A stretch of 13,404 nt of DNA from a virus, in the UHGV virus genome UHGV-0358253; one strand, written 5' to 3'. Shown piece by piece: positions 2,616 through 13,404 of this stretch. Under the pieces are notes generated by a model, which did not search any database, was not told where the DNA came from, and was given only the letters and a program-made list of their open reading frames with translations. Position numbers and translations under genes: made by a program. Position 1 is the first letter of the stretch; every line of letters begins with the position of its first letter.

Positions 2616-2780
2616 TCACTCAACATCAATAACGGGGAGCTGTTTCGCATAAAACGGCTCCGAAACATCCAAGAACAGTTCTAAAGATATCAGCAGCTAT
2701 ATGATCATTTCAAGACCAAATATTGATTCTGCAATTTCGGGACGTTACACTGTCTCCGCACCTTATAAAGCGGGTGCCGG

Positions 2781-2986
2781 GATTGGCGTCCTGAAATTCG
2801 CACATGCGCATAACCGCGCTTCAGCGGTTTTTTTGCGCACGTTTCCTCACATCCAAATTATGGTGGGGCGTGCAGGGGCATCGAAAGATGCGCCGGGGTC
2901 ATGTGCGACCGGTTACGCCAACCCTGTACGTCTCACCACCTCTGTGATTGGCGTCCCATGTGGTGAGTTTTCAAAATTCGCACATG
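2781..2986 (+). repeat. Direct repeat GATTGGCGTCC...AAATTCGCACATG in two copies (2781-2806 and 2946-2986), the second with a 17-bp insertion
   Basis: Copy 1 gattggcgtcctgaaattcgcacatg; copy 2 gattggcgtcc-catgtggtgagttttc-aaattcgcacatg, ending 12 nt before the Rha start codon. Confidence 0.6.
2812..2834 (+). terminator. Rho-independent terminator between the two Rha-like genes
   Basis: AACCGC-gcttca-GCGGTT stem-loop followed by a T7 run. Confidence 0.5.
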
Positions 2987-2997
2987 AGGATGTCACT

Positions 2998-3549
2998 ATG
3001 GCAACCACCCCTACCCAAACTCACCCTAAAATTGATGTTATCCATGGGAAGGCTGTTACCTCTTCTTTGGCCGTTGCCGAATATTTCTGCAAGCAGCACA
3101 AAAACGTTATTCAAAAAATCCAGACGCTTGAGTGCTCTGTTGAATTCACTGAGCTGAATTTTCAGCCCAGTGATTACACCGATTGCACAGGCCGCAAACT
3201 ACCTTGCTATCAAATCACCCGCGATGGCTTCGCGTTCCTTGCTATGGGCTTTACTGGCAAACGTGCAGCCCGGTTCAAAGAGGAATACATCAACGCCTTT
3301 AACCAGATGGAGAAGAATTTATCTGGTGCTGACGCGGTTGATATGTCAGCTGTCGCACGAAACGCCAGAGGCGTATACCTGCATTTGCGTGAAATCCATC
3401 AAATCTGGACAAGCCAGCTTTATCCAATGCTTAAGGCCGTTGAATCTCCGCTGGCTAGCAAACTGTACGACCGTGTTGGTGATGCTGTTTTTGGCGCTGC
3501 ACTTGTTGATTCCAGGCTGAATGGTTCTGACAAGGAGGTTCGCCCATGA
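2998..3549 (+). CDS. rha: Phage regulatory protein Rha family
   Basis: AVTSSLAVAEYFCKQHKNVIQKIQTL...ELNFQPSDY...YQITRDGFAFLAMGFTGKRAARFKEEYINAFNQME matches the conserved Rha core; start moved to ATG 2998 (GAGGA SD) because the upstream 2701 extension has no RBS and contains the terminator at 2812-2834. Confidence 0.85.
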   Translation: MATTPTQTHPKIDVIHGKAVTSSLAVAEYFCKQHKNVIQKIQTLECSVEFTELNFQPSDYTDCTGRKLPCYQITRDGFAFLAMGFTGKRAARFKEEYINAFNQMEKNLSGADAVDMSAVARNARGVYLHLREIHQIWTSQLYPMLKAVESPLASKLYDRVGDAVFGAALVDSRLNGSDKEVRP

Positions 3550-8862: not shown

Positions 8863-9615
8863 ATGAACCTTGAAGCCTTACCAAAATATTACTCCCCAAA
8901 ATCTCCAAAATTGAGCGATGACGCACCGGCGACAGGCTCAGGTGGTTTAACGATTACGGATGTGATGGCTGCGCAGGGGATGGTGCAGTCGAAAGCACCG
9001 CTTGGGTTTGCCTTATTCCTGGCAAAAGTTGGTGTTCAGGATCCTCAGTTTGCGATTGAAGGTCTGCTCAATTACGCGATGGCAATGGATAACCCGACAT
9101 TGAACAAATTGAGTGAAGAAACCCGGTTACAGATCATCCCTTACCTTGTGAGTTTTGCCTTTGCTGATTATTCCAGGTCTGCGGCAAGTAAGGCTCGCTG
9201 TGAGCATTGTGCTGGTACTGGATTTCATAGTGTATTGCGCGAAGTGGTGAAACACTCCAGAAGCGGGGAATCTGTTATCAAGGAAGAGTGGGTGAAGGAA
9301 TTATGTCAGCATTGCCATGGTAAGGGAGAAGTCAGCACGGCTTGCAGAGGGTGTAAGGGTAAAGGCATTGTCCTGGATGAAAAAAGAACCCGGCTTCATG
9401 GCGCGCCTGTTTATAAGATTTGTGGGCGTTGCAATGGAAACCGGTTTAGTCGTTTACCGACCACACTGGCACGACGTCATGTCCAGAAGCTGGTACCAGA
9501 CCTGACTGATTATCAGTGGTACAAAGGATATGCAGACGTCATTGATAAACTGGTAACAAAGTGCTGGCAGGAAGAAGCATTCGCTGAAGCACAATTGAGA
9601 AAGGTGACGAGATAA
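8863..9615 (+). CDS. Q: Late-gene antiterminator Q (Q82/QuuQ-type) with four CxxCxGxG-like zinc-finger repeats
   Basis: 250-aa ORF with GGAG SD; sits between the nin-like gene and a promoter/terminator pair ahead of the lysis region; CEHCAGTG, CQHCHGKG, CRGCKGKG, CGRCNGNR repeats. Confidence 0.7.
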   Translation: MNLEALPKYYSPKSPKLSDDAPATGSGGLTITDVMAAQGMVQSKAPLGFALFLAKVGVQDPQFAIEGLLNYAMAMDNPTLNKLSEETRLQIIPYLVSFAFADYSRSAASKARCEHCAGTGFHSVLREVVKHSRSGESVIKEEWVKELCQHCHGKGEVSTACRGCKGKGIVLDEKRTRLHGAPVYKICGRCNGNRFSRLPTTLARRHVQKLVPDLTDYQWYKGYADVIDKLVTKCWQEEAFAEAQLRKVTR

Positions 9616-9646
9616 GTGATTTTCACCGAAGATGGCGACATGATGC

Positions 9647-9687
9647 TTGCATTTCTCAAAAAATATGGATAAGATTTTCCCAACGAT
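9647..9687 (+). promoter_or_regulatory. Candidate late promoter pR' with a downstream -10-like pause element
   Basis: TTGCAT (9647-9652), 17-nt spacer, TAAGAT (9670-9675), then AACGAT at 9682-9687 at roughly +1 to +6, the arrangement used for sigma70-dependent promoter-proximal pausing at lambdoid pR'. Confidence 0.4.
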
Positions 9688-9720
9688 GGGCTTTGTATGT
9701 CTACCGTTGATGAGTTCAAG

Positions 9721-9755
9721 AACCCGCCGCCGAGCGGGTTAAATTATTTTTTCTT
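9721..9755 (+). terminator. Candidate tR'-like intrinsic terminator downstream of Q
   Basis: AACCCGC-cgccga-GCGGGTT stem-loop followed by AAATTATTTTTTCTT. Confidence 0.5.
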
Positions 9756-9769
9756 ACACGGGGATATGG

Positions 9770-10300
9770 ATGTTATACCGAGATCTTTTGCCTATTTTCT
9801 CAGAAAGACCCATATTTAAAGCTCCTGAGGCTGAAAGAATACTTCGTGAGCAATATTCTATCGCCGCCCCCACTCCTGTAATTCAGGAGATTTATTATGG
9901 ATTGGCAGGTTATGACAGATTTCAGGAGCTTTATGGGGATCTTAATATTGACCAAATCGAATGGAAATTGATTGAACTTCCCACTAAAAATTTTTTAACT
10001 ATCGGGGATAATGCTACTTACCCTGATTTTTTGCATGAGGTCGTTGAAGATTTCACAACCCGTAAAGGCGATGTATTTATGGATGATGAAATAAAAGCGC
10101 ATTGGTGTAATTTTGGCACATGGTGTGAACCTCCATTTTTTATAGATCGAGCTTTGCTGAAAAGTAATACAACAGGGCTTCATTTAATGGAAGGGCATAC
10201 AAGAGTTGGAACCCTGTTAGGGGCAGTTAAGTATAACTTCGTTAAGCTTGCTAATACTCATAAAATTTATTATGCGCAAGCAAAAGAATGTATTAAATAA
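9770..10300 (+). CDS. Hypothetical 176-aa protein in a low-GC moron; function unknown
   Basis: Clean ORF with GGGGA SD 5 nt upstream; by eye about 37-40 percent GC against about 50 percent in flanking phage genes; contains YPD-x20-EIK and GHTRVG segments; followed by a strong terminator. Confidence 0.75.
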   Translation: MLYRDLLPIFSERPIFKAPEAERILREQYSIAAPTPVIQEIYYGLAGYDRFQELYGDLNIDQIEWKLIELPTKNFLTIGDNATYPDFLHEVVEDFTTRKGDVFMDDEIKAHWCNFGTWCEPPFFIDRALLKSNTTGLHLMEGHTRVGTLLGAVKYNFVKLANTHKIYYAQAKECIK

Positions 10301-10337
10301 GTTGAGTGAAATTACTGTTTTTTTTTAACAATACTTA

Positions 10338-10358
10338 CCGCGTTCTCGCGGTTTTTTT
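10338..10358 (+). terminator. Rho-independent terminator after the low-GC moron gene
   Basis: CCGCG-ttct-CGCGG stem-loop followed by T7; an additional T9 run lies at 10318-10326. Confidence 0.7.
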
Positions 10359-10481
10359 ATAAATTAAACATTGGTGCAGTACGGTAAACACGCTGGTGGT
10401 CGTGAATACTGACTTTTTATCTTGCTGGCTTTTTAGACAAGAGTTATTGGTATGTCATGTTAACCATGAAGGTAAAAAGAC

Positions 10482-10676
10482 ATGCTAAAACAGCAAGATA
10501 TGACAGAAACGGCGAAAGTTGTTTTTAATGAATTAAACGGCAAACCGGCAACAGTCGGGGAGATAGCACAAAACACATACCTTTCACGCGAACGCTGTCA
10601 GTTAATACTGACCCAGCTGGTTATGGCGGGGCTGGCAGATTACCAGTTCGGCTGTTACAGACGCCTTCAGCAATGA
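10482..10676 (+). CDS. Small (64 aa) putative winged-helix DNA-binding protein, possibly PapI/FaeA-like
   Basis: AAGG SD 9 nt upstream; GKPATVGEIAQNTYLSRERCQLILTQLVMAGLADY resembles the recognition-helix region of small winged-helix regulators; similarity is weak and from memory. Confidence 0.5.
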   Translation: MLKQQDMTETAKVVFNELNGKPATVGEIAQNTYLSRERCQLILTQLVMAGLADYQFGCYRRLQQ

Positions 10677-10825
10677 AGGGCTTTTAATTTGTGAAAATGG
10701 GCGGCTGGTGGGTGTTGGTAGCACCTGCCAGCCATTCGCTCATGCTTACTGGTCACAAGCGAACCATGGCCCACTGCTTTAGCGCAAAAGCAGAGTGAGC
10801 CTACCAGAGTTACGCTTACTGATCC

Positions 10826-11851
10826 ATGAAAAACACTGTAAAAATAAACAGTATTGATTTAATCAACGCTGATTGCCTGCATTTTATTCAGTCCCTGCCT
10901 GATGATTCCATTGACCTGATTGTTACCGATCCGCCTTACTTCAAGGTGAAACCCAACGGTTGGGACAATCAGTGGAAAGGGGACGAAGATTACCTTAAGT
11001 GGCTGGACCACTGTCTGGCCCAGTTCTGGCGGGTGTTGAAACCTGCCGGAAGCCTTTACCTGTTCTGTGGGCATCGCCTGGCATCTGATATTGAGATCAT
11101 GATGCGTGAACGTTTCAACGTGCTTAACCATATCATCTGGGCGAAGCCGTCCGGACGTTGGAATGGGTGTAATAAAGAAAGTCTGCGCGCATATTTTCCT
11201 GCCACAGAGCGCGTTCTGTTTGCTGAACATTACCGGGGGCCATATCGCGGCAAAAGTGACGGCTATGTGGCAAAAGAAAGGGAACTCAAACAGCACATAA
11301 TGGCACCGCTGATATCGTATTTCAGGGATGCTCGTGCCGAACTGGGTATAACGGCAAAACAAATTGCCGAAGCCACAGGTAAGAAAAATATGGTTTCCCA
11401 CTGGTTTGGTGCCAGTCAGTGGCAGTTGCCGAATGAGGCTGACTACCGGAAGTTACAGGCACTGTTTTCCCGTATAGCGGCAGAGAAGTTTCAGGAACAA
11501 CAACTGGAACAACCACACCACCAGTTGGTGGCATCTTATGATTCACTGAATCGCAAATATTCTGAATTGCTGGATGAGTTTAAATCTCTCCGGCGCTATT
11601 TCTCCGTATCAGTCTCCGTGCCTTATACCGATGTCTGGATGCATAAACCCGTTCAGTTCTACCCGGGTAAACATCCGTGTGAGAAACCGGCGGATATGCT
11701 CAGGCAAATAATCAATGCCAGTAGTCGACCCGGCGATCTGGTTGCTGATTTCTTTATGGGATCCGGTTCCACAATAAAAGCAGCAATGGCGCTGGGGCGT
11801 CGGGCGTTAGGTGTTGAGCTTGAGACAGAGCGGTTTAATCAGACCATCTAG
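10826..11851 (+). CDS. Beta-class (N6-adenine or N4-cytosine) DNA methyltransferase, apparently orphan
   Basis: Motif IV DLIVTDPPY near the N-terminus and motif I DFFMGSGST near the C-terminus (order IV then I defines the beta class); about 200-aa intervening region with an HTH-like segment ELGITAKQIAEATG; no SD before the ATG. Confidence 0.9.
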   Translation: MKNTVKINSIDLINADCLHFIQSLPDDSIDLIVTDPPYFKVKPNGWDNQWKGDEDYLKWLDHCLAQFWRVLKPAGSLYLFCGHRLASDIEIMMRERFNVLNHIIWAKPSGRWNGCNKESLRAYFPATERVLFAEHYRGPYRGKSDGYVAKERELKQHIMAPLISYFRDARAELGITAKQIAEATGKKNMVSHWFGASQWQLPNEADYRKLQALFSRIAAEKFQEQQLEQPHHQLVASYDSLNRKYSELLDEFKSLRRYFSVSVSVPYTDVWMHKPVQFYPGKHPCEKPADMLRQIINASSRPGDLVADFFMGSGSTIKAAMALGRRALGVELETERFNQTI

Positions 11852-11897
11852 GAAATCAGTATGTTATCAGCAAATACAATTTTGTGAATTAATTCAA

Positions 11898-11926
11898 TTA
11901 TTGGTGGGATGTCTGTGCCGTATAAT
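11898..11926 (+). promoter_or_regulatory. Candidate promoter with a perfect -10 (TATAAT) and weak -35
   Basis: TATAAT at 11921-11926; best -35 is TTATTG at 11898-11903 with 17-nt spacer; a transcript from here would end at the terminator at 12129-12168. Confidence 0.25.
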
Positions 11927-12128
11927 GATTACAGATACAGTGTATCCTGCAATGCAGCAGGGCTGATGTGGTGGGTTGTACATAGCCTGCAAAGGATTGG
12001 CTTCATTAATTCATCGTTGATACAAGCGAGTCACGGTTGACCACGCCAACGGCTCATCGGTAAAAATCCGACACCGTGTCTTCTTAACTCACTTATTGTT
12101 TCCACCCATGTTTTTGGATACCTGCTGT

Positions 12129-12168
12129 AGCTGTCAGATTAGCGCGATAATCTGACAGCTTTTTTTTT
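12129..12168 (+). terminator. Strong Rho-independent terminator
   Basis: 13-bp perfect stem AGCTGTCAGATTA / TAATCTGACAGCT, loop GCGCGA, then T8. Confidence 0.8.
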
Positions 12169-12457
12169 ACAACGAATCCTTCTGATCTGCTTTTGCGGGG
12201 CTTTTTTGTATCCGCTCCATGCCCGGCGTATAAGCGGAGGTTGGTCAGTTTTCTAAAAATTGAAATACCTCACAATTCAGCCAGTTAATGGTTGTTTGTC
12301 TGGCGAAGAGTTTGTAAATAAAAAAACGCATGGTGAATCCCCCTAAGCGGCGGGGCGAATCAGCAGTCAGTTCTGGGATAATCGCGGGTTCGTATGCTGA
12401 TGCCGGACTCACCGGGAGGCACCCGGCACCATGCATCATGGTCATCCCCTTGTATGA

Positions 12458-12483
12458 TACCCCTCTCCGGAGGGGTATTTTTT
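12458..12483 (+). terminator. Strong Rho-independent terminator
   Basis: TACCCCTC-tccg-GAGGGGTA stem-loop followed by T6; a weaker GCCCG...CGGGC hairpin preceded by A6 at 12488-12515 could terminate the opposite strand. Confidence 0.75.
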
Positions 12484-12916
12484 GGATAAAAAAGCCCGCG
12501 CTGGGAGGCACGGGCGGCAAGGAATAAAACGTGAAGAAATTTTCACAGGCGCATAATAATCCGATGTTGCCAGATTTTGCAACTGCATCATCTGGTTATT
12601 ATGTGAGCTGGAAAATCAGATTCTGTATGGACTGAAGCCATGCTGTTATTTAGGGCCAAAGAGCTGGCTTTTTCCCGCCTTCTCTCCAGTAACGATTAAT
12701 GAGAAAAGAATGAAATGCTTTTCCTGGGGAGGAGGGCAGTAGAAAAAAGAACCCGCCAGCAAAAATATGGGGGATGAACAGCTTTTGCTACTCAGGTTGC
12801 TGGCGGGTATGGTTCTTCATGAAATAAGAATGTTACGCGGTATTTTTAATGAAAATGATAATTATTGTCAATTGGTTGTGCGTATTTTTTCATACATGAC
12901 TGGTAAAGGTGATTCA

Positions 12917-12947
12917 GGCCATCAGAGTTTTGCTGATGGCCTTTTTT
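12917..12947 (+). terminator. Rho-independent terminator about 35 nt upstream of the holin start
   Basis: GGCCATCAG-agttttg-CTGATGGCC stem-loop followed by TTTTTTCTTTCC. Confidence 0.7.
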
Positions 12948-12980
12948 CTTTCCGGTAGCACAGGTCTGTTGGGGCGGGAT

Positions 12981-13196
12981 ATGTATCAGATGGAAAAAAT
13001 ATCAACAGGCATTGCCTACGGCACCTCCGCAGGCAGTGCTGGCTACTGGTTTTTACAATGGCTTGATCAGGTTAGTCCGTCTCAGTGGGCTGCGATTGGT
13101 GTACTGGGAAGTCTGGTTCTGGGCTTTCTGACTTATCTGACGAATCTGTACTTCAAAATCAGAGAAGACAGAAGAAAGGCTGCGAGAGGAGAGTAA
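12981..13196 (+). CDS. Phage holin, S21/EssQ-type class II (pinholin-like), dual-start
   Basis: 71-aa product [28 protein letters not shown]...[36 protein letters not shown]: two hydrophobic segments, charged C-terminus, two in-frame ATGs three codons apart (12981, 12990); the ORF-track N-terminal extension from 12909 crosses the terminator and is rejected. Confidence 0.85.
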
Positions 13197-13200
13197 TATA

Positions 13201-13404
13201 ATGGTCCAAAACTATGAAATGATTGTGAAAGGGATCCGCAATTTTGAGAATAAAGTTACGGTAACTTTAGCATTACAGGACAAAGAACGCTTTGACGGTG
13301 AAATTTTTGACCTGGACATCTCGCTGGACCGTGTTGAAGGTGCCGCGCTGGAGTTTTATGAGGCAGCAGCCAGAAGGAGCATCAGACAGGTCTTCCTGGA
13401 TGTT
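13201..13404 (+). CDS. Small phage protein downstream of the holin (YdfR-like position), 3'-truncated by the window edge
   Basis: AGGAGA SD 10 nt upstream of ATG 13201; open frame to the window end (MVQNYEMIVKGIRNFENKVTVTLALQDKERFDGEIFDLDISLDRVEGAALEFYEAAARRSIRQVFLDV...); the YdfR analogy rests on gene order only. Confidence 0.6.
   Translation, partial: MVQNYEMIVKGIRNFENKVTVTLALQDKERFDGEIFDLDISLDRVEGAALEFYEAAARRSIRQVFLDV

Follow-up and report, generated by a model that had tools for sequence, protein, structure and literature searches.

A probable mosaic cluster of small-RNA genes between the DNA methyltransferase and holin genes of a lambdoid Escherichia coli prophage

What occupies the 1.1 kb of DNA that separate a DNA methyltransferase gene from the holin gene in the late region of a lambdoid Escherichia coli prophage? 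We studied this tract (positions 11852-12980) in the virus genome UHGV-0358253, within a window of 13,404 nt, which is the whole stretch of DNA analysed. RefSeq annotates no non-coding RNA under the tract, and calls two "hypothetical proteins" there in some genomes. Our results indicate that the tract is probably a mosaic cluster of autonomous small-RNA (sRNA) genes, or "morons", inserted in a Q-dependent late operon between the methyltransferase and the lysis cassette. About five candidate sRNA units (termed E1 to E5; Table 1) occupy the 1.1 kb, on both strands, and most of them are related to Hfq-bound prophage sRNAs of pathogenic E. coli. The case is built on direct observations of family membership, structure, covariation, synteny, distribution and strand bias.

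For E2, we identified a match to the full Rfam model of STnc100 (RF02076, model positions 1-206) at 114.5 bits (gathering score 47, E=5.7e-25), which ends in the second terminator of the + strand; a custom covariance model scored the same unit at 98 bits. Helices P1, P2, P4 and P5 align with the structure of the family and P3 is present as a 7-bp AUCAGCA/UGCUGAU duplex. Judged by its sequence, E2 is a bona fide STnc100 member. The homologues in enterohaemorrhagic E. coli (EHEC), EcOnc27/sRNA103 (~235/247 nt) and EcOnc05 (~222 nt), are Hfq-bound and have been detected on Northern blots, EcOnc27 being Hfq-dependent; in strain Sakai, the Sp5 homologue, right after stx2B, contains the EcOnc27 Northern probe, and Sp4 carries EcOnc05. 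E2 shares with STnc100, EcOnc27 and EcOnc05 its site in the late operon upstream of the lysis genes, its orientation and its convergent partner, and by analogy with the EHEC homologues it may be expressed and associated with Hfq. Its 3' seed module, AUCAUGGUCAUCCCCUUGUAUGA, is unlike those of the EHEC alleles, and its targets are therefore probably different. Transcription could begin at ~12328 (TTGTTT 12292-12297, 17 nt, TAAATA 12315-12320) or at ~12267, before CUCACAAUUCAG. An eight-codon open reading frame (ORF) after the GGGAGG loop was discarded, being unconserved, by inspection, among the alleles compared.

For E1, we compared four distinct variants. All four keep the -10 element, every helix, the single-stranded 3' segment and the terminator, and, like STnc100, contain a hypervariable insert; 98% of cells are paired, and five pairs, in P3, P4 and the terminator, show compensatory change. 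P3, for example, reads GUGGU/ACCAC in the window and GUGGCAG/UUGCCAC, a compensatory replacement, in L126, a 73%-identical homologue at a site flanked by insertion sequences (IS) in other E. coli. A custom covariance model built without E1 recovered positions 11935-12079 at 20.3 bits (E=0.0036 in 42 kb) and the L126 homologue at 28.8 bits (E=3e-5), with the best noise at 11.6 bits and both E-values taken from a shortened calibration. The match to RF02076 (17.6 bits, E=1.1) lies below the gathering score of 47, and because it fails this threshold we file E1 as a new subfamily of the fold and not as STnc100. The significant custom-model match and the presence of all helices, including P3, place E1 in the structural superfamily defined by the 5' fold of STnc100 and PasD, of which it is, as far as sequence can tell, a new diverged member (fold z=-2.7). 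The exact 22-mer motif of E1 had no match beyond E. coli and its phages in one genome per species, which speaks to the absence of that 22-mer only.

More than 120 loci were recovered when viral contigs were searched for the core motif; in these, a conserved 5' domain of ~100-130 nt is joined to interchangeable 3' seed/terminator modules, often in tandem copies. The fold consists of a closing helix, P1, and hairpins P2, P4 and P5, with P3 pairing the strand that follows P2 to the loop of P4. Among 53 distinct sequences, compensatory change was seen in 16 of the 26 pairs of the nested helices, against 3.9 in shuffles (8/8 pairs in P4), although the alignment on which the pairs were counted was fitted to the model and favours the structure; sliding the partners cuts pairing from 95% to 37-50%. 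P3 was counted by a per-sequence duplex search with cross-partner and shuffle controls, alignment-based counting having been dropped because MAFFT moves the register by one column between classes. It is at least 6 bp long in 46 of the 50 distinct sequences parsed, as 24 different duplexes, and matched partners score 15.6 where partners from other classes score 9.4. The four short cases include at least one mis-parse (L076, which gave 7 bp in another P3 search).

The same fold is found outside STnc100 proper. Zhu, Shabalina and Storz (bioRxiv 2026) reported that PasD, an sRNA of enteropathogenic E. coli (EPEC), is related to STnc100 and that both lie close to the holin/lysozyme operon; their preprint makes no mention of a pseudoknot. 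PasD1 and PasD2, identified in EPEC by RIL-seq (ligation and sequencing of interacting RNAs), share P1, P2 and the P3/P4 pseudoknot and score 55.6 bits with our custom model, but lack the P5 hairpin, and their UGUGAG seed and different terminator make up a 3' module absent from E1 and E2. Wherever an STnc100 core lies within 6 kb of a holin gene, it is upstream of it and on its strand (62/62; 62 against 0). We tentatively raise the possibility that the 5' domain of STnc100, PasD and E1, with its five helices, covarying P3 (more than 20 versions), invariant loops and hypervariable insert, is a functional pseudoknotted module that would bind a specific partner, whether protein, ligand, polymerase or ribosome, or have a cis effect on the late transcript, and onto which phages would shuffle 3' seed/terminator modules, amplifying it in tandem; it would then be a distinct class of structured phage RNA and not an ordinary Hfq sRNA.

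Several further observations concern this fold. In a variant class (L020 168-270, L009 3248-3350), the partner of the post-P2 strand lies before P4 and not in its loop (GUGAUACC...GGUAUCAC, then GAAC...GUUC), so that the helix is nested and not pseudoknotted. Locus L009 (2326-3350, minus strand) holds a tandem array of four clear copies and a degenerate fifth, and several EHEC-type loci (L012 3150-3741, L021 840-1431) carry three copies of which the middle one is diverged (34.8 bits); diverged extra copies also stand beside canonical ones in other loci. A conserved motif, CUCACAAUUCAG (12268-12281, with homologous sites in L130 and L134), stands ~55 nt before the STnc100 core, close to where Northern sizes of 222-247 nt would put the 5' end. 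The PasD seed UGUGAG has CUCACA for its RIL-seq target motif, and PasD could therefore pair with a long form of STnc100.

On the minus strand, E3 converges with E2, and the terminators of the two units abut at 12487/12488. It comprises a 5' hairpin, a U-rich single strand, GUUUUAUUCCUUGCC, containing CCUUGCC, an 8-bp terminator (12515 to 12494) and U6 (fold z=-5.6), and its promoter frame, GCAGTTGC, is common to AgvB and AsxR. Rfam models locate AgvB or AsxR directly 3' of STnc100, on the other strand, in related loci, and a convergent terminator is present in 35 of the 91 distinct STnc100 copies. Tree et al. (2014) described such sRNA "dyads" between pR' and the lysis genes, an arrangement on record for at least eight Sakai prophages, and a 2021 review states that the reason for the arrangement is unclear. 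E3 has the layout of an anti-sRNA in the moron site, being convergent with STnc100 and having a U6 3' end, with a putative short 5' end. It resembles AgvB, AsxR and EcOnc03 in site, strand, -35 frame and GCCCG...CGGGC terminator, and would be similarly short from that promoter, but its body is different from that of AgvB and AsxR, and lacks the CACAACA motif.

The closest relatives of E3 are EcOnc08, EcOnc21 and EcOnc42, longer RNAs that pair with mRNAs through CCUUGCC. They occupy the same convergent position and are collinear with E3 over their 3' ~65 nt, the CCUUGCC seed and terminator included; E3 differs from them by a 6-nt deletion in the U-rich stretch, and its sequence upstream of the short promoter is unrelated, for which reason a long form of E3 (182-271 nt) would have a different 5' part. 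Bar the 6-nt gap, E3 is ~85% identical (estimated by eye, uncomputed) to the 3' part of the EPEC RIL-seq sRNA 'E2348C_1409.E2348C_1408.IGR', which the RIL-seq paper equates with EcOnc08/21/42, and whose CCUUGCC matches the target motif GGCAAGG. That sRNA formed 767 chimeras with the cfa 5' untranslated region (5'UTR), and the RIL-seq partners observed for it are mRNA regions (cfa, dppA, tir, emrA). By megablast, positions 12402-12528 of the window are 82.8% identical to Stx2a (Shiga toxin 2a) phages. In prophage PP6 of E2348/69 (L131 1340-1500), ISEc13 cuts an STnc100 copy inside P2, and the adjoining convergent EcOnc08-type sRNA, the RNA detected by RIL-seq, is intact.

A first-pass annotation of this DNA had proposed a 34-codon micro-ORF starting at GTG 12531 behind an AAGGA ribosome-binding site. 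We rejected this candidate. Its frame is not conserved: E3-type relatives read GTG AAG TAA, and ColV plasmids and sequence type 131 (ST131) carry copies of the 3' half in which the start region is missing and a TAA stands in frame. The micro-ORF lies antisense to E3, where the conserved UUCCUUGCC segment (UCCUU) of the E3 seed, read as its reverse complement, supplies the AAGGA.

E4, also on the minus strand, forms a long bulged hairpin, CCCGCCAGCAA...UUGCUGGCGGG, followed by a U-run (fold z=-6.3). Its sequence aligns collinearly with that of the EcOnc32-type unit found in E2348/69 PP4 and in Sakai Sp3 (z=8.2, none of 500 shuffles scoring as high), which is likewise antisense and adjacent to the holin. 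EcOnc32 runs at ~112 nt on Northern blots and is bound by Hfq in UV cross-linking and analysis of cDNA (CRAC), and EPEC RIL-seq chimeras map to the PP4 unit; we found that the sequence of the EcOnc32 Northern probe maps to that unit, which is annotated as E2348C_1013. Like E4, EcOnc32 (Sakai Sp3) and E2348C_1013 lie immediately before the holin, antisense to the late operon, with an ATTGACAATAAT promoter, a GCCAGC-containing terminator stem and a length of ~95-110 nt; clear likeness between E4 and EcOnc32 is limited to the promoter and the overall collinearity. E4 could not be assigned to PasA (local alignment z=0.3) or PasC (z=1.5), which align with one another at z=49.6 and are positional analogues of E4, and it is unrelated to PasB. 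In a three-sequence alignment, the E4 core is near-invariant where its flanks diverge.

Finally, E5 looks more like a guard terminator before the holin than the end of a dedicated sRNA. An equivalent hairpin and T-run, at a distance of ~35-40 nt from the class II holin, recurs in most of 46 distinct upstream regions, whatever precedes it, its sequence varying while the stem is kept, and in phage SfV a terminator is annotated at the equivalent place. A short RNA from the E5 segment is possible, since the ~25 nt upstream of the hairpin are conserved; TTGTCA (12865-12870) is a candidate weak promoter. Positions 12851-12947 of the + strand also resemble the 3' end of SgrS, GACUG-GUAAAGGUGAUU aligning with GACUGAGUAUUGGUGUAA, but at 24.8 bits (E=5e-4) the match stays under the gathering score of 37 and is probably due to chance, though the segment is conserved.

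E4 and E5 travel together. The block at 12585-12950 is ~84% identical in ~1400 E. coli genomes, ~640 of the copies being on plasmids, and ColV-type plasmids and ST131 chromosomes share with the prophage an E4/E5 module whose left boundary is at ~12585, where both examined copies begin. In both of these (L129, plasmid pAH01-4, and L128, an ST131 chromosome; 2501-2846 in each), the block persists with the E4 promoter intact, and the holin and endolysin are gone. In pAH01-4, the only plasmid examined, which carries iroB, the block adjoins iss, fused to a fragment of Rz; the ST131 copy sits within a remnant near papI. The ~70 bp of strong conservation at the left end of the module (12585-12655) are explained by no convincing promoter, terminator or conserved ORF.

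Table 1. Positions of the E1-E5 units and of neighbouring features in the 13,404-nt window
Feature	Position	Strand	Details
Q-type antiterminator	8863-9615		PF03589, 1.7e-53
Late promoter module pR'-tR'	9647-9751	+	pR' TTGCAT (9647-9652), 17 nt, TAAGAT (9670-9675); AACGATGGG pause-type motif 9682-9690; tR' hairpin 9721-9740 then T-run
DNA methyltransferase	10826-11851		last moron protein gene before the tract
E1, structured sRNA-like gene	11921-12169	+	-10 TATAAT 11921-11926; putative start ~11933; ~236-nt unit
E1 parts	11935-12079	+	STnc100-like 5' domain, P1-P5 including P3/P4 pseudoknot
	~12083-12125	+	conserved single-stranded segment
	12129-12160	+	13-bp terminator, followed by T9
Decayed terminator-like hairpin	12186-12205	+	weak hairpin and T-run; probable remnant of the strong terminator that, in Sakai Sp4, ends the ileZ-argN-argO tRNA cluster preceding STnc100
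E2, predicted STnc100 family sRNA	12267-12487	+	Rfam match 12299-12487; 5' domain 12328-12434; variable 3' seed region 12435-12455; terminator 12456-12479 and U-run
E3, predicted sRNA convergent with E2	12488-12582	-	TTGCAA (12582 to 12577), 18 nt, TATTAT (12558 to 12553); putative short form ~12545 to 12488
Conserved block	12585-12655		~70 bp, ~92-95% conserved by eye (uncomputed) in alignment A1, flanks visibly less
E4, minus-strand sRNA-like gene	12742-12871	-	TTGACA (12871 to 12866), 18 nt, AAAAAT (12847 to 12842); RNA ~12835 to 12742
E5, terminator	12896-12948	+	10-bp hairpin 12916-12942 and T6, 32 nt before holin start
Class II holin (phage 21 S type), first lysis gene	12981-13196	+	PF04971, 1.2e-35; RefSeq annotation; right border of the tract

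We additionally scanned the whole region for signals. Terminator-like sites are enriched, with 14 in 10400-13404 against 3.1 +/- 1.7 in shuffles. At a permissive Rfam threshold (E<=10, 9500-13404), no match to Esr41, AgvB or AsxR was found, and sub-threshold matches to SgrS, istR, anti-hemB and mir-320 were treated as chance or terminator-driven. What the first-pass annotation had read in the tract agrees in part with these data. No ORF of the tract has family support of its own, the sole PHROG matches being to an ORF antisense to the STnc100 RNA, in line with its view of the tract as non-coding. The TATAAT at 11921-11926 recurs in all four E1 variants, and the three + strand terminators were recovered at 12129-12160 (13 bp, T9), 12456-12479 (10 bp) and 12916-12942 (10 bp). 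The conservation and covariation of hairpins across related prophages, which it had named as a check, are found in E1, E2 and the E5 hairpin. Its suggestion of small RNAs holds for the second terminator, which ends the STnc100 member, and for the stretch from the TATAAT to the first terminator, which is a conserved structured RNA gene; the third terminator is more probably a guard. The AT-rich segment that it placed at 12540-12900 is confined to ~12800-12950 (GC 0.32-0.35), other GC dips, at 11850-11950 and 12250-12350, coinciding with promoter regions. Its reading of one strand was incomplete, missing the minus-strand terminator at 12515 to 12494, the hairpin and U-run at ~12810 to 12742, and the + strand remnant at 12186-12205.

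The window is 100% identical to a lambdoid prophage of E. coli IHE3034, APEC O78 (avian pathogenic E. coli) and PMV-1, and the full tract is present in 122 complete genomes. The prophage is of the extraintestinal pathogenic E. coli (ExPEC)/APEC type, without stx and without tRNA genes; none of the latter was found in the window, at a site that carries tRNAs in Stx phages. Genes follow in the order DUF968, Q-type antiterminator, a 176-aa ORF, a 64-aa ORF, DNA methyltransferase, the tract and class II holin. SfV shares the 64-aa ORF and methyltransferase but reaches a terminator and the holin within ~75 bp of them, and positions 11852-12980 are therefore accessory ("moron") DNA in a Q-dependent late operon. 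The weak hairpin at 12186-12205 resembles the terminator of the Sp4 tRNA cluster, which suggests that the E2/E3 module may have come from a tRNA-bearing, Stx-phage-like late region.

Q, a promoter with a pause motif, tR' and lysis genes are all recognisable in the window, as expected of a lambda-type Q-dependent late operon. The predicted pR'-tR' module lies directly 3' of Q, 2.2 kb upstream of the tract, with AACGATGGG 6 nt past TAAGAT. From Q to the terminator it is ~91% identical in SfV, mEp460, Ayreon and Stx2c phages, where the terminator is annotated, and homology ends exactly at 9740. We take this layout to resemble that of lambda pR', with its promoter-proximal pause element and tR'. 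The module would itself yield a 6S-like RNA of ~60-70 nt. Elsewhere, in the early region, the 5' end of a 282-aa ORF (2701-3549) holds two adjacent Rfam matches on the + strand, one to the Hfq-binding RNA isrK (2758-2834; 62.3 bits, gathering score 50) and one to C4 antisense RNA (2856-2943; 75.1 bits, gathering score 45).

The following working is consistent with these features. In the lysogen, host RNA polymerase would start at the units' own promoters and stop at their intrinsic terminators, yielding E1 and E2 on the late-operon strand, both with the STnc100 fold, a short convergent E3 (of EcOnc08/21/42 type in the AgvB/AsxR position) and an antisense, EcOnc32-like E4. By homology, the products would be Hfq-associated RNAs that act in trans by base-pairing, recognising RNAs of the host or prophage through variable single-stranded segments at the 3' end (at the 5' end in the short anti-sRNA type). 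The terminators of the sense units and E5 may also shield the lysis genes from constitutive transcription. Upon induction, Q-modified polymerase from pR' (9647-9675) would read past tR' and all terminators of the tract into the holin gene.

Several points weigh against this reading. Promoter-like sites stand at the right distance in each of E1 to E4, and that of E5 is weak, but the promoter scan found four sites where 4.9 are expected from shuffles, and thus no enrichment overall; the transcription starts are placed from consensus matches. E1 has a poor -35, falls below the Rfam threshold and has a modest custom-model E-value. The start of E2 is ambiguous between the two sites given above, ~12267 giving ~219 nt, to be compared with ~222-247 nt in the EHEC homologues. 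The 5' end of E3 is uncertain, its homologues measuring 182 to ~271 nt and not ~58 nt, and neither AgvB (RF02702) nor AsxR (RF02703) matches it at E<=10, though both models find members in related loci. E5 may be a terminator only. Expression, Hfq dependence and targets in this prophage are predictions carried over from the EHEC and EPEC homologues.

We considered whether the main role of the tract might instead be in cis, stacked terminators and antisense promoters insulating the lysis genes in the lysogen, and/or the STnc100 fold acting on the stability or processing of the late transcript or on polymerase behaviour. Such a role is compatible with a cluster of sRNA genes, and would suit the conservation of a terminator right before the holin whatever lies upstream, the invariably sense orientation of STnc100 cores upstream of the holin (62 against 0), and a fold that greatly exceeds its attached seed modules in elaboration and conservation. 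As the main role, we regard it as unlikely: SfV manages with one terminator, the E1 homologue and the E4/E5 block persist without a holin (at the IS-flanked site, on ColV plasmids and in ST131), and the homologues bind Hfq and form chimeras with many mRNAs.

The first-pass annotation had supposed that the RNAs arise by termination or processing of the late transcript. In this account they would be by-products of the pR' transcript, cut short at the three + strand terminators. E1, E2 and E5 do lie on the late-operon strand and end in strong terminators, and short pR'-tR' transcripts that act as sRNAs are known, namely lambda 6S RNA and StxS (listed in the 2021 review), both being short lysogen RNAs within the late operon. 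The window has such a module at 9647-9751, but it lies 2.2 kb upstream of the tract RNAs, which have promoter-like sites of their own. As tR' stands 40-70 nt past pR', and a further terminator follows at 10337-10352, unmodified polymerase would rarely reach the tract, and Q-modified polymerase would ignore its terminators. E1 to E4 each have a sigma-70-like promoter, conserved in the cases of E1 and E2; E3 and E4 run antisense to the late operon; the E1 homologue stands isolated between IS elements, outside any late operon; and PasD and EcOnc27 are abundant in uninduced cultures. We thus consider a by-product origin improbable, and for STnc100 a 6S-like origin as the pR' transcript is ruled out, a lambda-like pR'/tR' module being situated right after Q.

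That the tract is a decaying, functionless prophage spacer, its hairpins leftover or due to chance, is more doubtful again. It is a mosaic of modules with sharp boundaries, at least one of its terminators has decayed (12186-12205), and a related STnc100 copy is IS-cut in EPEC PP6. Nonetheless, the strong covariance-model match of E2, the compensatory change in E1, E2 and the E5 hairpin, the near-invariant E4 core beside diverging flanks, the enrichment of terminator-like sites (14 against 3.1), and the fact that the homologues are Hfq-bound RNAs leave this reading with very little probability. The slightest probability falls to small proteins, whether from the 34-codon ORF at 12531, preceded by AAGGA, or from the RefSeq "hypothetical proteins" at 12245-12439 (minus strand) and 12767-12958 (+ strand): the Prokaryotic Genome Annotation Pipeline (PGAP) calls these two ORFs in some genomes, and a 91-aa minus-strand ORF (12245-12520) matches PHROGs 24488 and 27294 of unknown function (1.5e-6), but the micro-ORF frame is broken in relatives, the 63-aa ORF has 1-nt indels in both 84%-identical homologues, RefSeq has dropped both ORFs in IHE3034, and the PHROG matches lie opposite the conserved STnc100 RNA, where the simplest reading is of ORF calls over RNA-coding DNA.

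The cluster of autonomous sRNA genes that we favour is a kind of feature that is largely known already, its members being relatives of described prophage sRNAs. What is new relative to the literature compared is the stacking of five units, the E1 subfamily, the pseudoknot common to STnc100, PasD and E1, the swapping of 3' seeds, and the link to ColV plasmids and ST131. The "sRNA dyad in moron site" architecture of EHEC and EPEC is thereby extended to an ExPEC/APEC prophage lineage, in which up to five units stack in 1.1 kb. Current annotation leaves such regions blank or fills them with spurious hypothetical proteins, and some PHROG families are probably ORF-calling artefacts derived from the antisense strand of STnc100. 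The pseudoknot and the swapping of 3' modules provide a testable handle on why the scaffold is so conserved. On ~640 ColV-type virulence plasmids the E4/E5 block accompanies iss, a serum-survival gene (the adjacency to iss being taken from the one plasmid examined), and it is found on ST131 chromosomes as well; any regulatory activity that it has would therefore bear on extraintestinal virulence.

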